Origin: a virus
Taxonomy: Duplodnaviria; Caudoviricetes
DNA length: 50,456 nt
Virus record (IMG/VR): IMGVR_UViG_3300027985_000306
Coordinates: 1-50,456 of that record
Direction: 5' to 3' (one strand)
Part shown: positions 23,771 through 50,456 of the stretch, one piece after another
How positions within the stretch are numbered: position 1 is the first letter of the stretch
Layout: each line of letters starts with the position of its first letter
The notes under the pieces: generated by a model
What the model was told of the DNA's origin: nothing
The model's database searches: none
The model's input: the letters and a program-made list of their open reading frames with translations, nothing else
Translations under genes and position numbers: made by a program

Positions 23771-25156
23771 TTAATATGACTTCCACGAACCATAAGATTC
23801 GCTAGTCACGCGGTGAATAAAGGCGTTGCGATACTTCTCTTCGAGATCCCACCCGAAAGCAGGAAGACCCAACTTGGCTGCCGCCAGCATTGTGTTACCA
23901 CTACCAGCGAACGGAACCATGACTGTCGAAGACTCTCTCGCAAACGTGTTGATGATGTCCTGCATCATCTCAATAGGCCGTTCGGTCGGATGTATCTTCT
24001 TCGTGCTGTGCACTGGAGAATAATCAAAGACATTGATCCGTCCTTGCTTATTCATTCCAGGAGAACCTTTGCGAGCATAGAAGAAGAACTCTGCCGCATT
24101 GCCGAGATACTTATCCGGATGATGAGTCTGACCTGTTCTCTTAGTCCACACTCCTGGAATACGTTTCATCTCAAAGCCTGCTTCGACGATCCAGTCTGCT
24201 AGAGGCTGGAACCAGGGCTCAGGCCCGAACCAGCATACTAGCCATGAGTGCGAAGACATCACGCGATAGCATTCCGCTAAGGTTTTTCGCATGAAGTCTT
24301 CATAGAATGTAGGTTTGATCTCATTATACTTCGACGTATCCGCTTTCTTCTTCTGGCCATGCAGATCAATCGCGTAAGGAGGATCAAGTTCGACGAAGTT
24401 GACAATCCCGTCAGTCACCTTTCCAACACCATCGAAGAAGTTACCTAGCTGGTACGAAGCTATGAGCGCATCGCCCTTCTTCAGCTTAGGTTGGACATCA
24501 CTCTTCATCTTCTGGCGGCGAGCAACTTCCTTCAACGCCTCACGCTTGATTTCCTCTTCTCGCAATCTAGCCGCATCGGCCTTGGTCTTTACCTTTGAAA
24601 GCAGATCAGGATTCTCTTGTAGGAATTGATGCAGCTGCACATCTCGGCTCAGTGTCGCAGCGCTGACTCCAAGCTGATCTGCTACATCACGCAAGGAAAC
24701 TCCCGACGCGTCTGGAGCCGTGCTGATCTTCTCTCCATACTGCTCTTGCATCAGCCGAAGGATCTCTGCTCGTGCAGCTAACTCTTCTGGCGGAGACAGC
24801 CTCTTTCTGTTCAAGTTCTCATGAAGCTCCAGCGTTCGGATCTCCATAGCGGTGAGCGTATGCTCAAAGATCAGCGCGGGTATTTGCTTCAGCTGAATAG
24901 ACAGCGCAGCCATTGTTCGCCGTCCACCAGCTATAAGCAAATACGGCTGCCTAGGATCTTTAGGCTCCATCGACTTCAGTTCAGCTTCGTCAAGAGCTGA
25001 CTTCAGAACTATAGCAATGGGAGAGATCATCCCATTCACTTTCATATCATCAGCCAGCTCTTCGATGCCTACATAGTCTCCCCGCATTCGCTTGCCTAGA
25101 TCAATCTTCAGCGGGTCTATGAAGTCCATCTTTTTATTAAGGACAGTTTCTCTCAT
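23771..25156 (-). CDS. ParB/Srx N-terminal domain fused to beta-class N6A/N4C DNA methyltransferase
   Basis: G.ISPIAI...LIAGGRR...ENLNR ParB motifs and an HTH, then DPPY (motif IV), HPTERP and PFAGSG (motif I). Confidence 0.9.
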   Translation of the reverse strand: MRETVLNKKMDFIDPLKIDLGKRMRGDYVGIEELADDMKVNGMISPIAIVLKSALDEAELKSMEPKDPRQPYLLIAGGRRTMAALSIQLKQIPALIFEHTLTAMEIRTLELHENLNRKRLSPPEELAARAEILRLMQEQYGEKISTAPDASGVSLRDVADQLGVSAATLSRDVQLHQFLQENPDLLSKVKTKADAARLREEEIKREALKEVARRQKMKSDVQPKLKKGDALIASYQLGNFFDGVGKVTDGIVNFVELDPPYAIDLHGQKKKADTSKYNEIKPTFYEDFMRKTLAECYRVMSSHSWLVCWFGPEPWFQPLADWIVEAGFEMKRIPGVWTKRTGQTHHPDKYLGNAAEFFFYARKGSPGMNKQGRINVFDYSPVHSTKKIHPTERPIEMMQDIINTFARESSTVMVPFAGSGNTMLAAAKLGLPAFGWDLEEKYRNAFIHRVTSESYGSWKSY

Positions 25157-29224: not shown

Positions 29225-29262
29225 AAGTTAGTTGTTCCGTGACTACGCAAGAGCGCGTATCG

Positions 29263-29335
29263 CAGGGCCAGGAGGGCTCGAACCTCCAACCTCCAGATTC
29301 AAAGTCTGGTGTTCTGCCAGTTGAACTATGACCCT
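29263..29335 (-). tRNA. tRNA-Gln (anticodon TTG), no encoded CCA
   Basis: Cloverleaf: acceptor AGGGTCA/TGGCCCT, D arm GTTC/GAAC, anticodon arm CCAGA-CTTTGAA-TCTGG, T arm GGAGG-TTCGAGC-CCTCC, discriminator G. Confidence 0.93.
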
Positions 29336-30051: not shown

Positions 30052-30471
30052 CTACGCGGCTTCGAGACCGGCCTTGAGCATTGCGATGATCGCAGCGCGC
30101 TCGTCTTCGTCCAGCTTGTTGAAGTTGGAGAGGATCGAGGACTTGGGATCGCGCGTCGGAGAACGATCCACGTCGGGCCGCCAGTCGGTGAACTCGACAT
30201 CGAGCTGATCTTGGGTCGCGCCGTCTACAAGGCGGGCGCGGATCTGCGACTGGAGCTTGACGTTGGCCGACCTGATGAAGAAGTCGTAGACCGTTTCGTC
30301 GCCGAACTTCTCAATGGCTTCTGCGGCGTTGGCACCTGGATCCCAGTTCACAGTGCCAGACACCTTGTAGGTGTTGCCGTCTTCGTCTTCCAGCTCCTTA
30401 GTAGCTGTCACTTCAACCAACGACGAGACTTCCTCTTCAACGTCGGCAGTCGGGGTAAGGACTTCACTCAT
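30052..30471 (-). CDS. Acidic hypothetical protein with its own promoter and terminator
   Basis: Start MSEVLT at 30471; biased codon usage; flanked by a consensus promoter and a terminator. Confidence 0.75.
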   Translation of the reverse strand: MSEVLTPTADVEEEVSSLVEVTATKELEDEDGNTYKVSGTVNWDPGANAAEAIEKFGDETVYDFFIRSANVKLQSQIRARLVDGATQDQLDVEFTDWRPDVDRSPTRDPKSSILSNFNKLDEDERAAIIAMLKAGLEAA

Positions 30472-30541
30472 GACAAACCTCTTAGTTTGTTTGTTGTGTT
30501 GGGTGATACCCGTGCTTTCGCGTACGGGCGGGAATGTTTTG

Positions 30542-30572
30542 CAAATATACAGTGTGACGCGGCAAGTGTCAA
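30542..30572 (-). promoter_or_regulatory. Sigma70-type promoter
   Basis: TTGACA-17 nt-TATATT; the -10 extends to TATATTTG, matching the Bacteroidota TAnnTTTG element. Confidence 0.8.
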
Positions 30573-30598
30573 CCACTATGCGAATTTTGTTAGTCTTG

Positions 30599-30997
30599 TT
30601 AATTTGCGTCACCAAAGAGATCCTTCTGCCTAGAGTCACCTAGGTGCTTACGGATCTTCTCAGCGATCAGGTCGAGATCTGCGCTGGATGCAGAGATCCT
30701 ATCGACTCCCTCAGCCACTCGATCTTCTTCTTGGAGCGCAGAGACGATAGCCCTCTTTGCTGCCGAGCCTGTCGGAGTACCAAGTCCCATGCTATCAAGC
30801 GCTACTGTTGCGTCTTCGACTGTGTTATAACGCGACAGTTCGTGTTCGACTAGATCATGGAATGTGGAGACGATAAGATGGATCAGGTGTGATCTGCTCG
30901 TCGGACTGTAGCCCCTGTCCCGGAAGAACCGAGCAAGTGCAGCCATCTGGCGTAGATCTACCCGAGCGTTTACGGGAATGCGTTGTGAGTCAGCCAT
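30599..30997 (-). CDS. Hypothetical protein (possible RHH-type regulator)
   Basis: IPVNARVD...SRSHLIHLIV pattern. Confidence 0.5.
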   Translation of the reverse strand: MADSQRIPVNARVDLRQMAALARFFRDRGYSPTSRSHLIHLIVSTFHDLVEHELSRYNTVEDATVALDSMGLGTPTGSAAKRAIVSALQEEDRVAEGVDRISASSADLDLIAEKIRKHLGDSRQKDLFGDAN

Positions 30998-34893: not shown

Positions 34894-35229
34894 CTACTGC
34901 GGTTTGTGGTTGATGATCGGCTTGTAGCGCCGTTCGAAGGTCTCGATGAAGTTCTGAGTACAAGAAGACCGATGCAATACGATCCCGCTACCGGGATGCC
35001 AAGTTACTCGGTTCCAGCCTCCAAACGTAATCGAGTCGTGGCCCACGTTCTGCACACAGAAGTCCTTCGGACATTCTGCTTCTTCGAAGATTCGGTAGAT
35101 GTCATACACAACATGTGCGACCATGTGTGTAGCTTCATCTCCGATCACATCGAGTGCGCGAGAAAGAGCCTGTTTGCCTCTGTCGTCCATAAGCTCAAGC
35201 GTTTGAGTGAGCGATGCGGCTGGCATCAT
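34894..35229 (-). CDS. Hypothetical protein (true start may be the downstream MDDRG)
   Basis: The annotated ATG lies within the CTGATGA core of hammerhead HH-B. Confidence 0.55.
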   Translation of the reverse strand: MMPAASLTQTLELMDDRGKQALSRALDVIGDEATHMVAHVVYDIYRIFEEAECPKDFCVQNVGHDSITFGGWNRVTWHPGSGIVLHRSSCTQNFIETFERRYKPIINHKPQ

Positions 35230-35287
35230 CAGAGGTTGAGAACCACCCCAACCTGACGGGCGGTTGTTGAGACCGCCCCGTTTCGCC
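35222..35287 (-). ncRNA. Type II hammerhead ribozyme (HH-B)
   Basis: GGC-GAAA-[CGGGGCGGT/ACCGCCCG]-TC^-[AGGTTGGGG/TTCTCAACCT]-CTGATGA-T-GCC. Complete catalytic core; predicted GUC cleavage between 35255 and 35254. Confidence 0.9.
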
Positions 35288-35290
35288 TTA

Positions 35291-37537: not shown

Positions 37538-37577
37538 GATGTTACCTCTTTCCTTAGTGCTAAAAGCGATGACTGCT

Positions 37578-37650
37578 GGCATCGTCAGACCTTGGGAACA
37601 ACCCCAAGATGACCGGAGGCGAAGCCTAAGCAACAACCTCCGGTTTCGCC
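37578..37650 (-). ncRNA. Type II hammerhead ribozyme (HH-A)
   Basis: GGC-GAAA-[CCGGAGG/CCTCCGG]-TC^-[ATCTTGGGG/TCCCAAGGT]-CTGACGA-T-GCC. Complete core; predicted GUC cleavage between 37611 and 37610. Confidence 0.9.
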
Positions 37651-37851
37651 TTATTTGCTGCTGTTCTTGTGCTCCTGGTAGATCGCCTCGATGCCGACGT
37701 TGGCGGGGTAGTCGATCTTCCTGGCCGCACCGGGAACGATGTACTCAGTCCACTGGACGTGCAGCGTCTCGAAGTCTTCGTATCTGTGGTAGAGCGTGCC
37801 GTTGATGTACAGCCGCTCGGTGTGGGCGAAGATGTTGACGTGGGCTTTCAT
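37651..37851 (-). CDS. Hypothetical protein
   Basis: 66 aa; its TAA stop abuts HH-A. Confidence 0.6.
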   Translation of the reverse strand: MKAHVNIFAHTERLYINGTLYHRYEDFETLHVQWTEYIVPGAARKIDYPANVGIEAIYQEHKNSSK

Positions 37852-38429: not shown

Positions 38430-38676
38430 GTAACATCGTAACCTTGTAACCTTGTAACCCCACCACCCTCTCCCCCCAACGGTATCAAACGTAGACGGAC
38501 ACCTACTCTCTACCTTCCCTTCTATCTATCTTCTTTACTTAGTTATTTTTTTCTTTTTTTTTTTAAAGAGAGAGAGAAAGAAAGATAGAAAGAAAGCGCC
38601 GGTCTATGTCCGAGCCGGGACAGAGGAGAGGGGGACATGGTTACATGATTACATGGTTACACAGTTACAACGTTAC
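38430..38676. repeat. Inverted arrays of 8-nt-period GTAAC/GTTAC repeats around a pyrimidine/purine tract (candidate replication origin)
   Basis: GTAAC at 38430, 38438, 38446, 38454; (G/A)TTAC at 38640, 38648, 38656, 38664, 38672; central T-rich then AG-rich tract. Confidence 0.75.
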
Positions 38677-39081
38677 GAATCAGGGGGTCGGAAAGTGCAA
38701 CTACAACACATACCGCAGATAGAAGACAGTTGAGCTTAAATCCACATCCAATCGGGCTGTTTTCTTATTTTTCCTCTTAGCACATAGGACTACGTATATC
38801 GGTGTCTAGCCACATCGCCATACCGACCCCGGCCCCCTTCGTGTAGTTCGTCACACTGTAGCTCACGCTATTTAACTCCCCCTAACAACTACCCCTACCA
38901 GTCAACAACGTTATGGCTTGTACTACGTATATACCCCAACACCTCGTCACACTGTAGCAAGCGGAGCTTCGCCCTACTAGACCATTTTCCTTCGCGGGTG
39001 TAGTACAGCCGTTATTGTACATGGGCCGCCCCCATGCCAGCAAGAACGCAATAACGGTCTTCTACGGTCGTTTATGTACAT

Positions 39082-39120
39082 AAAAAAAGGGACAACCGCT
39101 TACGCGTGGTTGTCCCTTTC
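39082..39120 (-). terminator. Rho-independent terminator of the first early cassette
   Basis: AAAGGGACAACC...GGTTGTCCC followed by TTTTTTT. Confidence 0.85.
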
Positions 39121-39150
39121 TTGTATGGATAAGGGTTGCTTTTTCCTTAC

Positions 39151-39375
39151 TTACTTGTTCGCGTTCATGTTCGCACTTCCGTTCACTTCAACGTGAAGGA
39201 ATCCGAACATTCCCTTACGGAATTTGACCTGTACTTCAACGGGCACGTTGAACGTTTCCGATGTGTACGTGAAGGTCACGCTTTCCGCGTCTTGTGTGCC
39301 GTTCAACATCTTGTATGAGGCTTCAAGCAACAAATCCTCAACAATCCGTTCGGCTTGTTTCTTTGGGAAGAACAT
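39151..39375 (-). CDS. Hypothetical early protein
   Basis: 74 aa; shares the atypical codon usage of its upstream neighbour. Confidence 0.65.
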   Translation of the reverse strand: MFFPKKQAERIVEDLLLEASYKMLNGTQDAESVTFTYTSETFNVPVEVQVKFRKGMFGFLHVEVNGSANMNANK

Positions 39376-39380
39376 GACGT

Positions 39381-40094
39381 TTACTTGTTGTCGTTGTTGT
39401 TGTCGTTGTCGGTACCTTCGTTGTTCGCGGATTCCTTCGCTTTCTTCGCTTCGATCATTGCCTTTTCACGTGCTTCCAACAATGCGATCAAGGCGCGAAC
39501 ATCTTCCGGGGTTTCGGCTTTGGTTTCCTTCAACAACTTGTCGGTCTTTTCTTCCGTTGACAACGGATACTCCATCGGCACACCGATGTTGTTGAATCCA
39601 ACCTCAACAACGGGGATGGATTCCTTCACATCTTCCATCTTGCCGCCCAAGGCGGCTTTCCGGCGAACGGTGCGGGTGATACGCTTTCCATCGTTCAACG
39701 GCTTTCCGTCTTCACCGATCGCCCCCCATGACTTCCAGAAGCGATGAAAGGCGGCTTTCGTCTTCGGCTTGTCCCTGTTCACTCGTGCGAACGTGACAAC
39801 CTTTTTACGTGCCGCTTCCTTCAAGATCGGCTTCAATTCAACCCCGGCGAAGTTGACGTGCAACATGATGTATTCACCCGTTGTGTTGTCCCCTTCGTCT
39901 TTGTCGTATCCAACATGCGTCAACAGCTTGATAACTGCTTCCGGCACATCGGGGACAACGAACATCGGCTCCTCTTTCTTCGCTTCCGGCTTCACGTCAT
40001 TCGTTGACGTATCGGCTTCCACGGCTTCCACGGCTTCAACAACGTCCGTTGTTGCCGCTTCAACGGCTTCAACTTTCTTGGCTTGCTTTGACAT
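39381..40094 (-). CDS. Hypothetical early protein (237 aa, charged), probably first gene transcribed
   Basis: Start MSKQAKK at 40094 after an AC-rich leader; EAV repeats; GAA/CAA/TTG-biased codons. Confidence 0.75.
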   Translation of the reverse strand: MSKQAKKVEAVEAATTDVVEAVEAVEADTSTNDVKPEAKKEEPMFVVPDVPEAVIKLLTHVGYDKDEGDNTTGEYIMLHVNFAGVELKPILKEAARKKVVTFARVNRDKPKTKAAFHRFWKSWGAIGEDGKPLNDGKRITRTVRRKAALGGKMEDVKESIPVVEVGFNNIGVPMEYPLSTEEKTDKLLKETKAETPEDVRALIALLEAREKAMIEAKKAKESANNEGTDNDNNNDNK

Positions 40095-40222
40095 TGGTTC
40101 GGTGTTTGTTGCCCTTGTAAGGGCAATGTGTACGTTCCAGCGGCAAAGCAACCCTTATCCCTTCAACTTCAATCCCAACTTCCCATCGGGCGAACAAGAA
40201 ACCGTCCCTTGTCCCCCCGTCC

Positions 40223-40241
40223 CCCACACATTCAAAGAACA
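40223..40241 (-). promoter_or_regulatory. boxA/boxC-like antitermination signal
   Basis: TGTTCTTTGAA immediately followed by TGTGTGGG in the 5' leader. Confidence 0.55.
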
Positions 40242-40390
40242 CGCTTGCAACCACGCTTGCGCTTGCGCAAACGCGTTGCGCGTACGCATGGAAATGTTCA
40301 AAAGATCCCTGTTTATGTGAATCTAACATGAAGACGGATTCATGCAGGGTTGGCATAACAAGTTAAGTCTAATGTTTACACGCGCTGGAC

Positions 40391-40418
40391 ATAGTATGAA
40401 TCGTGTAAAAAGATACAA
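40391..40418 (-). promoter_or_regulatory. Putative early promoter
   Basis: TTGTAT-16 nt-TACTAT. Confidence 0.45.
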
Positions 40419-40433
40419 GTGAAGACCGTTGTT

Positions 40434-40483
40434 CAACCCGCCCCCCGTACATCAAGCGCCGTGAACAACCCGCCCCCCGTACA
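40434..40483. repeat. 18-bp direct repeat x2
   Basis: CAACCCGCCCCCCGTACA at 40434-40451 and 40466-40483. Confidence 0.85.
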
Positions 40484-40776
40484 CAACATGCGATGTTCAC
40501 CGGCTTTGATATAACCGCTTTGTGTAAACGCTGGAATAATATGCATTTAAGGAGCACCCCCCTTGGGGAACAACGTCCTGGATTGTAGAACGTCAAGCAT
40601 CGACACAATATGGGAGGGTTCTAGCTTTTCCCACATCTTTGTTCACTTCACTCTTGTTCGCCCCGCTTAACAAATTTGTTTTAAACAATTTGTGTGTTGG
40701 GGCTGCTTGCGTTTGGTCGGCGCGTTCTTTATTGTTACGCTGTTCGCCGGACTTTTGTTAGATCACTAAGAAAGCC

Positions 40777-41322
40777 ATGTCAGACGACAGCAACGCAGCC
40801 GCTAGGATCTTCGATATTGATTCCGGGCGCACTAGTCCCGGTTCGTATCAGCTTAAGAAGATGCGGGCTGTCCATCGCCGGATCGCAGAACACGCCGCCC
40901 TAGGTATGAAGGACAAGGACATCGCAGCCGTGGTAGGGGTCACGCCGCAGACCGTAAGCTACACGCGGAAGTCTCAAGTCGTTCAGGACTACATGGACAT
41001 CCTAGAGAGTGCGGCCGCCGGTCAGACAATCGACACGCTGAAGGAACTACGAGAACTCGCGCCCTTCGCGGCGAGGACTCTCGAAATTCTAATGCTGAAT
41101 CCAAACACCGACGACAAGATTCGTGCTAGTGTCGCCCAGGATCTACTTGATCGCGCCGGATATGCTCCGGTGAAGAAGGTAGCCACAGCCCATATGAACG
41201 TTCTCGATACACAGGACATCAAGGACATCAAGAAGAGGGCTCGGGAAGCTGGCGTTATGCTTACATCCCCCGACGCTAGCTCTGTTACAGCCTTGGACAT
41301 AGACGACGACTCCGACGAATGA
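40777..41322 (+). CDS. terS: Terminase small subunit (putative)
   Basis: N-terminal HTH (KDIAAVVGVTPQTVS) and A.DLLDRAGY motif; first late-strand gene. Confidence 0.65.
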   Translation: MSDDSNAAARIFDIDSGRTSPGSYQLKKMRAVHRRIAEHAALGMKDKDIAAVVGVTPQTVSYTRKSQVVQDYMDILESAAAGQTIDTLKELRELAPFAARTLEILMLNPNTDDKIRASVAQDLLDRAGYAPVKKVATAHMNVLDTQDIKDIKKRAREAGVMLTSPDASSVTALDIDDDSDE

Positions 41323-42448: not shown

Positions 42449-43929
42449 AGAGAATAATTGCTCCGCCAATTCGTATAGGTGTTGGTCAGCCCGTTACCAT
42501 CAAAGTGAAAGCTACGCTCGATGGTAAGGTAGTTTTGCACAGAGAAGGTCACTCCCTGCTTGCGAACTTCCTTCGGCTGCTATATGCGAAGATGATTGGT
42601 GGTCCTAGCGATTCCCAGGACTACGGAGCAACTATGAGGGCGATATATCCTACGTCTGACCAGTTTCAGACCAAGGTTTTGTCGGCTACGAAGGATGATC
42701 CATGCAGGGTTATTCTTGATGAAGGGGAAGGCTGGTCTACTTCAGGAGAGGAAGCAAGGCGTGCTGCGATCTCAGGAGCGCAAGGAATGACGCTTCTGAA
42801 CAATGATGAGCTCTTTTTAGATTACATAGGTCCCAGTACGTATGATGTTTATACTGATTTTGTTGGCGGTACGGGACTTGATACGACATTAGAATCAGAT
42901 TATGTAGCTGATTCAGCTAGAGTTATTAAGTATGACTATGCCCCTTCACATGGAAACAGTGGTACATTTAGCGTTCTTGGGTCTAAAATCCTATACGGTA
43001 TACGCCTTGGTACAGGTTCCACGGCGGTAGCTATTGATAACTTTCATCTCGATAGAATAGATATGGAGATGGAAGTTGGAGATCAGACTGTTACTCCTCC
43101 TGCCGTTGATACAGAAGCCGAGACGTCTACCATCGTATTTACCAGAACCTTTACGAACAACTCTCCTTCAACAGTTACTGTTACAGAGATCGGACTCTTT
43201 GCGAATATTGGACACTGGCTCACTGGCTATCCTGCAATGATAGCCAGAGATATCATCTCTCCCTCACAAGCAATTCCCGCTGGGTCAGAGTTTACTATCG
43301 AATATCAGATTGTTGTAGCTCTTGAGAACGTAACTCCTCCCTATGGCGGTGTTCTTCGTCAGCTTGGGGAGCTTCTTTACCGTCAGTTCAATCAAGCAAC
43401 TAGGGAAGCTAAGGACTGGCTTAACGCTAGCCAGTCTGTTGGTCCAGGCAACTTGAATCTAAGAGTATGCTTTCCTGGAGGTTTTAGTACTCCTTTTTAT
43501 ACTGGGAATGACCAACCAGGCTGGCCGTTTGGCCCCCTTCTCGGAACGGATGATCAGACAGATAATCCGCTAGGTATTGACAACTTTGGCCTCAATAGTG
43601 GTGTTGATGATACTCTTATTTACTATGGAAAAGGCACTGGGCCAAATGGGATAGGTGAACTTCGTTACTTCCCGGCGTTAGTTGAAGATTTCACTGTAGC
43701 GGGAGGTATTGCTAGCTTTCATATCATTCGGCCAGCGCTCAATGTTAGTGGTTCGCAAATCACAGCGAAAGAGGCTGGACTAGTCGTGTGTGGGAACAAT
43801 ACTGGAGATTTAGGCAATAGCTGGAACGACATACACTTTGTTACTAGGCATATCTTGTCTAGCGCTGTCCCTATCGACAATAACGAATTGGTCTTGATAG
43901 ACCAAGAGTTCGCTTTGCAGGTATCATAA
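42445..43929 (+). CDS. Putative tail/appendage protein with two related domains
   Basis: Repeated motif N.S...TVTEIGLF...ARDII / NVSGSQITAKEAGLV...TRHIL. Confidence 0.55.
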   Translation: MKRIIAPPIRIGVGQPVTIKVKATLDGKVVLHREGHSLLANFLRLLYAKMIGGPSDSQDYGATMRAIYPTSDQFQTKVLSATKDDPCRVILDEGEGWSTSGEEARRAAISGAQGMTLLNNDELFLDYIGPSTYDVYTDFVGGTGLDTTLESDYVADSARVIKYDYAPSHGNSGTFSVLGSKILYGIRLGTGSTAVAIDNFHLDRIDMEMEVGDQTVTPPAVDTEAETSTIVFTRTFTNNSPSTVTVTEIGLFANIGHWLTGYPAMIARDIISPSQAIPAGSEFTIEYQIVVALENVTPPYGGVLRQLGELLYRQFNQATREAKDWLNASQSVGPGNLNLRVCFPGGFSTPFYTGNDQPGWPFGPLLGTDDQTDNPLGIDNFGLNSGVDDTLIYYGKGTGPNGIGELRYFPALVEDFTVAGGIASFHIIRPALNVSGSQITAKEAGLVVCGNNTGDLGNSWNDIHFVTRHILSSAVPIDNNELVLIDQEFALQVS

Positions 43930-44681
43930 TGTCCGCTATACGAGAAGAGATTAGACTGGGCATTGCTCAAGCGACTGTTGGGGATACCACCCTCAGTATC
44001 TCGGGACCGCTGAAGCTGTCCTTGCATACAGCTGATCCCGGCTTTTCAGGTGCGCCGACTAATGAGGTTACTGGAGGCAGCTATGCTAGACAGACGATAA
44101 CCTTCGGAGCGCCTACGACTGATGCTCCTGGCCGAAAAATCAACAACAACAATCAGATAGAATTCGCTGGTATGCCTGCGGCTACCATCACACATTGGTA
44201 TGTTTGGAGCAGTCTTGGCGTAGCGTTGTTTCGAGGGACTATTTCTGCGTCGGTAGGGGCTGGACAATCCCTTATCGTAGAGATTGGAGACATTAAACTA
44301 CACGTTGAGGGGCTGCAATCTACCTTCTGGATGGACGCAGTTCTGGATGCTCTGCGAGCTGCCACAGAAGTAGACTACACATCCGACACGATTTATCTCT
44401 CTCTTTGCTCTGCAGATCCTGGGCAGGGAGCAGTTACAAATTTGCTACCAGGGATAACACCATTGGATGCCAAGGCAGCGCTTGATACAGTGCAATCAGT
44501 ATACCACTGGACAAATGGCAATGTCCTAACGCATCCTCAAATATCGCCAGCTACGCCAGCTTATTGGGTTATATATAATGCCTCGTTATCGAATCAGGTG
44601 CTTTTAAGGACTAACATTGGAGGTTCTGAGCATACAGACTTCCGTTGGCGTCCTTATAAGCCAGACCTTTATGCTGCGTAA
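43929..44681 (+). CDS. Tail fibre-associated protein with tandem L.L.TADPG domains (paralog of 48025-48771)
   Basis: LHTADPG...EVTGGSYARQTITF and a second LCSADPG unit. Confidence 0.65.
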   Translation: MSAIREEIRLGIAQATVGDTTLSISGPLKLSLHTADPGFSGAPTNEVTGGSYARQTITFGAPTTDAPGRKINNNNQIEFAGMPAATITHWYVWSSLGVALFRGTISASVGAGQSLIVEIGDIKLHVEGLQSTFWMDAVLDALRAATEVDYTSDTIYLSLCSADPGQGAVTNLLPGITPLDAKAALDTVQSVYHWTNGNVLTHPQISPATPAYWVIYNASLSNQVLLRTNIGGSEHTDFRWRPYKPDLYAA

Positions 44682-48024: not shown

Positions 48025-48771
48025 ATGTCAGACTTCTGTAACTACGCAGAAAATGCTGCGGTAGACGCTGCTGTAGGTGCTGCTACGCTGGCTGCTACCA
48101 CAAGCCTTACGCTGCACTTGCACACCGCTGATCCTGGCGAAGTTGGAACTTCCAACGAGGTAACTGGAGGCTCCTATTCAGCCCAAGCGATCACATTCAG
48201 TGCTCCAGAAGCTGGAACTGGAGCTAATCGAAAGGTGGAGAACGACGCGGCTATCACATTTAGTGGTATGCCTGCTGCCACTGTTACTCACTTTTCGGTG
48301 TGGGATCAATCGTCCAACGTCTGGTTCAAGGGAGCATTCGGTTCTTCTATCGTCGTTGGTGCTGGAGGTGACATTGACATCGCTATCGACGGCATCAGCA
48401 TCGAACTGTCGGGAGACTGGAACGCGATCGTTATGGATGGTATTCTAAATGCCTTCCGAGGTAGCGCCGCATTCAACCTCACTGGTGAGACGATCGTCTT
48501 GACGCTCTGTACAGGCGATCCTGGTACTGGTGTTGTAGCCAACGAAGTCGCAGGCATTACTCACCAGACACCTACATGGGGAGCCGCCTCAGATGGTGTA
48601 AAGTTGAACAGCGCAGACATCACGTTCCCAACCGTCTCGTCTGCTACAGTATCTTGGGCTGCGTTGCTTCGAGAGAGCGACGATCAAGTTCTGTGGAGTG
48701 ACGACATTGCAGATGCAACTAGCACAGACTTCCGTGTGAAAACGGGTGATCTGAGCGTAACTGTAGCCTGA
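48025..48771 (+). CDS. Tail fibre-associated protein with tandem L.L.TADPG domains
   Basis: LHTADPG...EVTGGSY..Q.ITF.AP; GMPAAT.TH shared with 43929-44681. Confidence 0.65.
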   Translation: MSDFCNYAENAAVDAAVGAATLAATTSLTLHLHTADPGEVGTSNEVTGGSYSAQAITFSAPEAGTGANRKVENDAAITFSGMPAATVTHFSVWDQSSNVWFKGAFGSSIVVGAGGDIDIAIDGISIELSGDWNAIVMDGILNAFRGSAAFNLTGETIVLTLCTGDPGTGVVANEVAGITHQTPTWGAASDGVKLNSADITFPTVSSATVSWAALLRESDDQVLWSDDIADATSTDFRVKTGDLSVTVA

Positions 48772-49545: not shown

Positions 49546-50456
49546 ATGAGCGATCCTAACAACATACGGGACATTCTGGCAGCCTGTTATCAGGACTCGC
49601 AGACTATGGCTAAGGTATTCTTGCCTGAGCGGTTCTGGAGACCGTTCGATCCGCAGGTGCATGGCCAGATGTTTGACCTGATCGACAACAGCGATAATCC
49701 ACTAAAGGCCATTGCAGCGCCTCGTGGTATGGGTAAGACTTCTATCATCAACCTATTGCTGCCTATGAAAGCTATCTTGTTTCAGGAAAGCCGCTACATC
49801 GTTCCAGTTAGCGCAACGACCGACCTTGCAATGCAGCAAGCTGAGAACTTGAAACAAGAACTAATCATCAATCCTTTGGTTGAGAAGCTCTATGGTCCCT
49901 TGGCATCTCAAAACTTCAGCAAGCGTCAGTGGGTCGTCAACATAGGCGACCAGGATATATGCGTTATGCCTCGAGGCGCTGGACAGCAGATTCGTGGTTT
50001 GCTCTACCGTAACTACAGACCCGGCCTTATCCTCGTGGATGACTTGGAAGATCCAGAGGCGATGGACTCCGAGGAACAGCGAGCTAAGAAGAAGGAGTGG
50101 TTCTACGCTGACCTACTAAACTGTGTTGACCGTGGAAAAGGTAGCCAATGGCAGATCATTGTACTGGGTACGATTCTGCACCAAGACTCTTTGCTCGAAG
50201 GTCTGCTTGATAATCCTTCTTGGGACTCTATTCGCCTCGAGTTGTGCGATGACAATCTAAACAGTCTTGCGCCGAACTTTATGTCCACCAAGGACGTTCG
50301 GACGCTATATCAGCAATTTAAGGAAGCTGGAAAGGAGGATACATTCTATCGAGAATATAGAAACAACCCTGTTCCTATCTCTTCAGATGCTACCTTCCCT
50401 TCCGCACTGTTTAAGAACTACGATCCTGTCAAAGAGAATCTCGACGCCAATCCGCA
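49546..50456 (+). CDS. terL: Terminase large subunit, N-terminal ATPase domain (runs off the window end; not in ORF track)
   Basis: MSDPNNIRD...; Walker A APRGMGKTS, QQIRG, Walker B LILVDDLED, IVLGTILH.DSLL. Confidence 0.92.
   Translation, partial: MSDPNNIRDILAACYQDSQTMAKVFLPERFWRPFDPQVHGQMFDLIDNSDNPLKAIAAPRGMGKTSIINLLLPMKAILFQESRYIVPVSATTDLAMQQAENLKQELIINPLVEKLYGPLASQNFSKRQWVVNIGDQDICVMPRGAGQQIRGLLYRNYRPGLILVDDLEDPEAMDSEEQRAKKKEWFYADLLNCVDRGKGSQWQIIVLGTILHQDSLLEGLLDNPSWDSIRLELCDDNLNSLAPNFMSTKDVRTLYQQFKEAGKEDTFYREYRNNPVPISSDATFPSALFKNYDPVKENLDANP

Follow-up and report, generated by a model that had tools for sequence, protein, structure and literature searches.

The window analysed here is a viral DNA of 50,456 nt that makes up the entire virus record IMGVR_UViG_3300027985_000306 (Duplodnaviria; Caudoviricetes), and our subject is a zone within it from which a set of very short words is almost completely missing. 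The avoided set comprises CAG, GAG and TAG together with CTG, CTC and CTA, written below as BAG and CTV (B is C, G or T; V is A, C or G). The core of the zone (39063–40322), which is also poor in TA and rich in CG, holds 14 such sites against 136.3 expected. On its minus strand lie a 228-nt leader, two genes (P0001 and P0002) and an intrinsic terminator, which form one leftward unit. This is the first leftward early unit of the phage, adjoining the divergent junction and the small-terminase gene; the first-pass annotation of this DNA, made from the letters alone, had proposed it as the DNA that enters first.

The leader, or promoter region (40095–40322, minus strand), is non-coding, and no convincing sigma-70 promoter was found for the unit. 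P0001, the first early gene (39381–40094, minus strand), encodes 237 amino acids, and P0002, the second gene (39151–39375, minus strand), 74 amino acids; neither has a Shine–Dalgarno sequence, and the leaders of both are A/C-rich. The intrinsic terminator (39083–39122, minus strand; inverted repeat I6) consists of a 15-bp G+C-rich stem followed by a U run, with a predicted fold of −26.3 kcal/mol, and the first BAG/CTV site met leftward (39062) lies ~20 nt past that U run. The two genes are bracketed by the arms of a 22-nt inverted repeat, I1 (39121–39142 on the left and 40145–40166 on the right), which are 91% complementary and 1,002 nt apart. Strong pairing of the 5′ and 3′ untranslated regions through this repeat was considered and set aside, because the duplex (−44.5 kcal/mol) is just 1.3 s.d. 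below random windows, which is not significant.

To the right, an 84-nt island with six sites separates the core (39063–40308/40322) from a second block upstream of the unit (40393–40530), which is site-free against 14.9 expected. This block carries two exact 18-nt C-rich direct repeats (40434–40451 and 40466–40483), found nowhere else in the genome and lying between the purged unit and the small-terminase gene; a related C-rich word is located at 40213–40228. The repeats are a candidate packaging or regulator site. To the left, ~750 nt past the terminator hold no convincing open reading frame (ORF) and contain direct repeats and an imperfect, near-perfect palindrome of ~220 nt with an A-rich loop (38437–38661; fold −110 kcal/mol). 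Compared with Rfam, the palindrome matched hairpin-type models only, below their thresholds. It might serve as an origin, as a processing site or as a border element of the kind that stops injection in T5.

The proteins of the unit resemble almost nothing in the databases. Neither P0001 nor P0002 gave a curated-level match in Pfam, PHROGs or PADLOC, P0002 belonging to no family at that level, and an ESM Atlas search gave no usable match for either. A search of 5.8 billion proteins and a profile search of 1.8 billion representatives returned a sole homologue of P0001, here called P0003, with 63% identity; scans of viral and metagenome collections for the DNA of its 49-kb contig gave no match. 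Searches of a cultured-phage collection by blastn and tblastn matched neither the region nor P0001. AlphaFold models reached pLDDT values of only 41 and 51, and Foldseek comparison with the PDB yielded 0 matches at E ≤ 0.001. The first-pass annotation had put the two genes forward as anti-defence candidates, for which no family, fold or defence-library match was found.

The depletion itself proved to be exactly as large as first described. Between 39075 and 40320 we counted CAG 3, GAG 1, TAG 0, CTG 4, CTC 6 and CTA 0, the same 14 sites as in the first-pass annotation, where 134.8 are expected from the genome's own frequencies and 116.6 from uniform composition. AG occurs nearly exclusively as AAG (17 of 21) and CT nearly exclusively as CTT (72 of 82), also in agreement with the earlier description. 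Across 1,852 windows of 1,246 nt outside the zone, the minimum was 94 sites (mean 139.4, s.d. 19.4), so that a k-mer analysis, the check proposed at the outset, upholds the depletion. The eight longest BAG/CTV-free gaps of the 50,456-nt genome all fall within 39062–40531; the last site on the left is at 39062, and dense sites resume from 40309. An assembly artefact is unlikely, since part of the zone (39761–40079) recurs with one difference in a contig from a run that belongs to a different study.

General palindrome avoidance does not account for the pattern, as had been noted earlier from the presence of GATC and CCGG. Each of these occurs five times in the zone, which also holds ACGT (13), CGCG (7) and GTAC (6), and all five palindromes, together with CATG, are at least as frequent as in the genome at large; what is depleted is tri- and dinucleotides. 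Two features had gone unremarked: TA is strongly depleted in the zone (27 versus 65.5 expected) and CG is enriched. After correction for composition, rho(AG/CT) is 0.65 in the zone and 1.21 in the rest of the genome, and rho(TA) in the zone is 0.35. Read one step at a time, the word CTAG is made up of CT, TA and AG.

Neither the composition of the proteins nor codon usage nor the style of the capsid gene explains the bias. When both proteins were kept fixed and codons were drawn from the usage of 17 long genes (2,000 draws), 84.1 ± 6.6 sites were expected in the two coding sequences (minimum 61), whereas 12 are observed. A synonymous shuffle within the two genes, keeping their own codon usage, still gave 19.9 ± 2.5 sites against those 12 (P ∼0.0005), so codon junctions have been purged too. 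Given its amino acids and the codon usage of the genome, P0001 has 7 BAG versus 33.9, 2 CTV versus 30.9 and 46 AAG versus 35.2 expected; in P0002, AG and CT together number 18 versus 29.9 (z = −4.4). On the sense strand of the two genes, the amino-acid-controlled ratios are 0.26 for CT, 0.27 for TA, 0.76 for AG and 1.69 for CG.

Codon usage is shifted in the way first reported, with GAA:GAG at 30:5, TTG providing 15 of the 18 leucine codons and CAA:CAG at 3:1, and none of the 73 codons in question is NCT, a choice made in 40–50% of cases elsewhere. AAG provides 26 of the 36 lysine codons, a share equal to that genome-wide, and is therefore truly exempt. The earlier statements on the surrounding and control sequences were borne out as well. 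Non-coding DNA is equally bare (0 sites versus 9.5 and, in the leader, 2 versus 24.7 expected), and the capsid gene, a highly expressed control, uses the words freely (BAG 53 versus 57, CTV 85 versus 71).

A comparable stretch lies at the syntenic place in the nearest readable relative, an IMG/VR contig of 47,798 nt with 56% identity in DNA polymerase and a syntenic early block, and it is even barer of AG and CT than the zone in the window. From position 77 to ∼960 of this contig, AG occurs 6 times versus 56 expected and CT 12 times versus 55, with AAG at 1 versus 21 and CTT at 3 versus 18; 7 of the 12 CT are in CTAC. In the first gene of the relative (328–633), the amino-acid-controlled counts are BAG 0 versus 12.7, CTV 1 versus 10.8 and CTT 0 versus 4.5, and the controls are normal (GA 14 versus 11.6, TC 20 versus 19.5). 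A 26-bp hairpin is located 3′ of this gene, and the third gene has normal AG/CT content. The contig starts ~250 nt before the bare first gene, and ~190 nt upstream of a promoter-like site, read by eye, are bare too. Its first 76 positions (L003 1–76) consist of 35 nt of unrelated-looking sequence and then a run of 44 A directly before the AG/CT-free stretch; either the assembly broke off at a genuine homopolymer here, or the run could be a library artefact where the DNA truly ends. The proteins encoded over the bare stretch have no similarity to P0001 or P0002, and the bias thus belongs to the position and not to a gene lineage.

A profile of the polymerase found at least 550 relatives in IMG/VR, 80 loci being returned; other IMG/VR anchors (a 494-aa protein, an 877-aa protein and the N-terminal part of the terminase) gave no matches. 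The family set comprised 29 genomes, namely 27 contigs of at least 43 kb, G001 and the window. Among the ten strand-symmetric dinucleotides, AG/CT shows the strongest local depletion in 10 of the 29 genomes and ranks second in 6 more. In the 26 genomes with a located small-terminase gene, the genome-wide minimum of composition-corrected rho(AG/CT) fell 0.3–3.3 kb upstream of that gene in 16, with ∼1.7 expected by chance. More distant relatives (the cultured or deposited Desulfofustis, Manatee Spring and Microcystis phages and five small-terminase loci) showed only weak dips.

The amino-acid-controlled test was applied to 14 of the 26 genomes, a non-random choice that included nine of the eleven lowest zone ratios, the middling G009 and G012 and the weakest G023 and G025. 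Among the first early-strand ORFs, one or more had z ≤ −3 for AG+CT in 12 of the 14, and later ORFs were close to 0; G023 and G025, with the weakest zones, showed no early-ORF depletion of AG+CT. For the tests that follow, one low-z early ORF was picked per genome, in most the most depleted one, so that the size of the deficit is inflated by selection while its specificity is not; for G000, G009 and G018 the ORF was shortened so as to begin at an internal position, and in G018 this position does not hold a start codon. The synonymous shuffle gave P ≤ 0.023 in 7 of 12. Summed over nine relatives, the sense strand had ratios of 0.56 for CT (z = −9.9), 0.63 for TA and 0.76 for AG; by trinucleotide, BAG was at 0.63, CTV at 0.58, CTT at 0.48 (28 of 58 expected) and AAG at 0.97 (131 of 135), with GA at 0.95, TC at 1.04 and CG at 1.61. 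The two genes of the window share this dinucleotide profile in a stronger form. NCT codons in the early ORFs of the relatives numbered 48 of 289 versus 130 expected, the controls NGT and NTT being unchanged, and the capsid gene showed no depletion over 28 genomes (BAG 0.85, CTV 1.22, CTT 1.00, AAG 1.03). An enrichment of AG/CT codons in the bulk of the genome was also considered as a sign of positive selection; it is modest (NCT 0.43 versus T3 0.31), and we do not rely on it.

The same CT/TA/AG signature was found in relatives of 37–51% G+C, which probably have different hosts. Their first early proteins align with P0001 over shared motifs, and may be fast-evolving positional orthologues of it, although the link is weak when profiles are compared (E = 0.005, probability 7%). 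The first-pass annotation had named one case against its own reading, a recent import from a donor that shares the bias; this is excluded, as the bias stands at the same position over non-homologous genes and is present in weaker form family-wide. Recurrence at one position in a family of more than 550 IMG/VR polymerase matches permits comparative study, and the zone would mark P0001 and its positional counterparts as the first-acting proteins of the family.

The purged zone sits between two divergent blocks, as the first leftward unit. The rightward late block is opened by the small-terminase gene (40777–41322, plus strand), which marks the divergent junction and served as the anchor in relatives; its product matches HTH_23 and, by tblastn, an annotated small terminase of a Desulfofustis phage. 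The block continues with fibre, terminase, portal and capsid genes and a 1,683-aa protein, to ∼16.5 kb. This last protein was considered as a virion RNA polymerase and dropped, as it has no family or PDB relative. The leftward block runs from 37.6 kb down to 16.5 kb and encodes DNA polymerase A, a ParB_N–N6_N4 methyltransferase fusion, a PD-(D/E)XK-type exonuclease and a DUF3987 helicase, as well as an AAA_24 protein, MazG, a DnaJ-domain protein and an M15 peptidase. Two proteins (43929–44681 and 48025–48771) match the fibre family Gp80 of the Ralstonia podophage GP4 (PF23140) and the adaptor protein matches the SU10 adaptor family; these similarities support a podophage morphology.

The record is opened within the large-terminase gene (49546–50456 joined to 1–548), with a frame offset of 1 base at the junction, and ∼25 residues are left unmatched relative to the protein of the Desulfofustis phage; a few dozen bases are probably missing for the record to close as a clean circle. 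No terminal repeat is visible in this circularly cut contig, and the assembled contigs, which carry no read starts, showed no molecule ends, joints or terminal repeat. A packaging start or genome end beside the small-terminase gene is plausible; contig ends of relatives near that gene, judged by eye, were not clearly above chance. Two matches to the type II hammerhead ribozyme (35214–35288 and 37567–37651, both minus; 39.6 and 39.1 bits versus an Rfam gathering score of 37) lie on the strand of the early genes, the second where the next early unit begins, and early transcripts may be self-cleaved by such ribozymes. The phage also has a tRNA-Gln (29262–29335, minus strand) with anticodon UUG, which reads CAA; CAA exceeds CAG by 3:1 in the purged unit, while the rest of the genome favours CAG (59%).

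Taken together, the fall from ∼135 expected sites to 14, in coding and non-coding DNA alike and recurring at the same position in relatives, is a real footprint of selection, as the first-pass annotation had held. For words of 2–3 nt to be purged ten-fold, selection has to persist at dozens of positions, both synonymous and non-coding, so something in the infected cell must read these words in the first minutes. In the literature we found no bacterial defence or phage function that accounts for such a purge in a single early unit. The explanation that we favour, with a probability of roughly 0.4, is selection against a 2–3-nt word read on DNA, this word most likely being the target either of the ParB–adenine methyltransferase of the family or of a frequent-cutting nuclease or nickase. 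The zone would be the first early transcription unit, placed at the point of early/late divergence and presumably the first to be expressed or to enter the cell, and purifying selection would keep it free of the word, BAG/CTV in this phage and AG/CT in the nearest readable relative. Its reader would be a DNA-acting enzyme of very short specificity. If this is the methyltransferase, the first-expressed segment would stay unmarked on a densely marked incoming genome, and could be transcribed immediately by the host RNA polymerase and be invisible to modification-dependent defences. If it is a nuclease or nickase, phage-borne or of the host, the enzyme would be active while only this segment matters.

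A reader on DNA is favoured because the avoided set is closed under reverse complementation here and in the close relative (in this phage BAG and CTV are both down, AAG and CTT both tolerated), because DNA that is probably untranscribed is bare as well, and because the property is positional. The block 40393–40530 and the DNA upstream of the promoter-like site of the relative appear to lie outside the transcript. Several observations weigh against such a reader. In the nine relatives the sense strand is asymmetric, with AAG at 0.97 and CTT at 0.48, which fits an effect on the transcript or the template strand better than plain double-strand recognition, and the left limit of the zone falls within ∼20 nt of the predicted RNA 3′ end, as an RNA-level constraint predicts. 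The co-depletion of TA and the enrichment of CG are not explained by a single AG/CT reader. Minima near the junction are also found for GA/TC in 9, GC in 7 and TA in 5 of the 26 genomes (0–3 for other classes), exceeding chance, so the region is compositionally odd in several ways. The methyltransferase is present in every family genome, yet zone strength ranges from 0.38 to 0.86 and its presence is no predictor; family scans of the ORFs yielded no nuclease or nickase candidate; and 14 sites remain, so a lethal cutter would not be fully escaped.

The ParB_N–methyltransferase is the only sequence-specific DNA-marking enzyme found in the genome and, as judged from its domains, a candidate reader of the avoided word. 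It is encoded at 23771–25156 on the minus strand and matches ParB_N and N6_N4 methyltransferase in Pfam, with a DPPY motif of the adenine type and a GGRRT motif in the ParB part; DpnA, CcrM and ParB/Spo0J are its relatives in the PDB. The ParB–methyltransferase, the exonuclease and DUF3987 are each present in 29 of 29 family genomes, the window included, and by sequence the fusion is a core gene of a large family of uncultured podophages. Two further candidates were abandoned. A restriction-like nuclease in ORF 30052–30639 rested on a weak REase match (E = 0.004) with no Pfam or PHROG backing, the likely product being a short acidic protein with homologues in two relatives. DarT-type ADP-ribosylation acting on single-stranded DNA was dropped because the target published for DarT2 is TNTC and DarT1 is reported without a consensus. 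The purge of ordinary 5–8-bp motifs of type I, IIG, III or BREX-like systems, as inferred in the first-pass annotation, is unlikely: the avoided unit is 2–3 nt long and the signature recurs in phages of 37–51% G+C, which makes sets of host-specific restriction, BREX or protospacer-adjacent motif (PAM) sequences poor explanations. A family-encoded enzyme or universal machinery is the more likely reader. The other option given in that annotation, a motif modified by the phage, is the sub-reading that we prefer.

The same facts can be read at the level of RNA, which we regard as possible though on the whole unlikely. The first early mRNA would then be selected to lack CU, UA and [C/G/U]AG against an RNA-targeting enzyme of 2–3-nt specificity that acts as infection begins (an mRNA interferase, some other RNase or an RNA ADP-ribosyltransferase), and only this transcript must survive. 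The coincidence of the end of the zone with the predicted transcript 3′ end speaks for this, as does the sense strand of the nine relatives, which avoids CT, TA and AG but not AAG and is depleted of CTT. Through the 22-nt repeat, the 5′ untranslated region could pair with the 3′ one, and both genes lack a Shine–Dalgarno sequence. We know of no RNase with CU/UA/[C/G/U]AG specificity, and the dinucleotide modified by one mRNA-modifying defence enzyme is reportedly GA. With a set closed under reverse complementation in this phage and its close relative, an RNA reader would need two unrelated words; the upstream block 40393–40530 and the DNA upstream of the promoter-like site of the relative, whose promoter positions are putative, are bare as well; and all other mRNAs of the phage carry the words at normal or high frequency. 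A published precedent does exist in a defence enzyme described as modifying mRNA at a dinucleotide (bioRxiv 10.1101/2024.02.24.581662).

Three other accounts appear far less probable. Avoidance of CRISPR PAMs in the DNA first injected or exposed, which would lower spacer acquisition and targeting, has in its favour that PAMs are 2–3-nt words read on either strand of double-stranded DNA, that PAM depletion in phages has been described (PMC4246573) and that T5 is reported to be CRISPR-sensitive only in its first-step-transfer DNA. A PAM-free patch of 1.3 kb shields just 2.5% of the genome, and one CRISPR type shared across 37–51% G+C is unlikely. AAG, the strongest type I-E PAM, is exempt in the zone, and we hold this account to be very improbable. 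We give equally little credence to the avoidance of primase initiation triplets on both strands beside an origin, be they those of DnaG, as suggested in the first-pass annotation, or those of the phage's own primase. Primases read 3-nt words and bacterial DnaG starts at CTG or CTA, both of which belong to the CTV set while CTT is tolerated; a large palindrome and repeats, possibly an origin, adjoin the zone, and a phage-encoded primase–helicase (DUF3987) is present in 29 of 29 genomes. Depletion is as strong for CTC as for CTG, however, and in the relatives it extends to CTT; the co-depletion of TA is left unexplained, we can offer no reason for priming to do harm in just this one transcription unit, and DnaA boxes are not enriched (6 versus 8.6 expected).

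The view that no site-specific reader exists is largely refuted; on this view the bias would reflect a very highly expressed gene adapting its codons, mutation that is biased locally, or sequence recently imported from a donor with this signature. The codon usage of the zone is very distinct, with C-ending two-fold codons and avoidance of the rare-type AGR, ATA and CTA, and several dinucleotides are at unusual levels in the family's early-proximal region. Against this, the non-coding parts are equally bare and the synonymous shuffle leaves a deficit; the capsid gene is unbiased in 28 genomes; NCT is avoided and the controls NGT and NTT are not; and genes without homology carry the bias at the same position. 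CTG, CAG and GAG, the usual optimal codons at ≥50% G+C, are avoided, and the base composition of the sense strand does not fit C-to-T deamination of the non-template strand.

If selection does act through a reader on DNA and this reader is the phage ParB–methyltransferase, the zone tells which motif the enzyme reads, and it shows that a modified genome has to enter with an unmarked segment at its start. Were the reader a nuclease or an RNA-targeting defence, an unrecognised mechanism of host shutoff or immunity would be at hand, together with a design rule for resistant early genes. A more general rule, which we consider doubtful, would be that the first expressed unit is written without the two-letter word of a lineage-specific marking or cutting enzyme; here this would be AG/CT, maybe the word of a near-dinucleotide ParB-fused methyltransferase, and the unit an unmarked ‘landing pad'. 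Under such a rule, banned words would reveal from sequence the specificity of phage DNA-modification or host-shutoff enzymes.

Transcripts lacking the sites of the mRNA interferases MqsR (GCU) and MazF (ACA) are spared by them. Such mRNAs would resemble the unit described here in that whole transcripts lack a 3-nt word and the limits appear to match the transcript; they differ in that one word on one strand is concerned, whereas here avoidance covers two reverse-complementary sets plus TA and also includes DNA that probably goes untranscribed. For a local purge of this kind, our literature search returned only a preprint on T5 and the genome-wide depletion of PAMs.

In T5, vulnerability to restriction and CRISPR is reported to be confined to sites in the first-step-transfer (FST) DNA, which is described as having at its border non-coding DNA with many repeats and palindromes, and FST DNA has been hypothesised to lack the sites of the phage's own nuclease that degrades host DNA (PMC10644984, bioRxiv 10.1101/866236). 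As far as those accounts go, both phages would have a small leading set of pre-early genes with its own signals, and in both a long non-coding stretch with abundant repeats and palindromes comes next; in the window, the terminator (39083–39122) is followed by ∼750 nt of repeat-rich DNA with the 220-nt palindrome. The order of entry and the pause were demonstrated by experiment in T5, while here the arrangement is known from sequence. FST DNA is ∼10 kb long and a terminal repeat, whereas the zone is 1.3–1.5 kb long with no terminal repeat visible, and the items avoided in T5 are ordinary recognition sites of 5–13 bp, as opposed to ∼ten-fold depleted words of 2–3 nt. Anchoring at the membrane through DnaA boxes, as in T5, was considered and dropped on the count of boxes given above, only one of which is near the zone.

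Viral enzymes that read a word of the same length, and almost the identical word, on double-stranded DNA are found in chloroviruses, in which M.CviQII is reported to methylate AG and Nt.CviQII to nick R^AG, alongside Nt.CviPII (CCD) (PMC3017599, PMC3299994). These are viruses of eukaryotic algae, and the available excerpts of the two papers mention no motif-free early zone; a viral methyltransferase is present in both cases, and no nickase was found here. Marking enzymes of mobile elements are, according to the published descriptions, commonly specific for 2–3 nt, as in the plasmid methyltransferase M.EcoGIX and M.BceJIII (both SAY), Hia5, phage thymine hypermodification at TG and thymine dioxygenases at NTC/NTG, some of which need a ParB-like activator (PMC7736820, PMC3299994, PMC13458397, PMC13229309). 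ParB-like domains thus reportedly assist such short-specificity enzymes, and ParB_N is fused to the methyltransferase here; the excerpts on these systems describe no local exemption zone. The PAM depletion reported for phage genomes (PMC4246573) likewise concerns short words avoided on both strands, but as described it is genome-wide and weak, whereas the purge reported here is local, ten-fold and common to relatives of very different G+C content. Finally, in the classical avoidance of restriction palindromes of 4–8 bp, whole sites are missing while their sub-words are normal; in the early unit of this phage family, the sub-words themselves are depleted.

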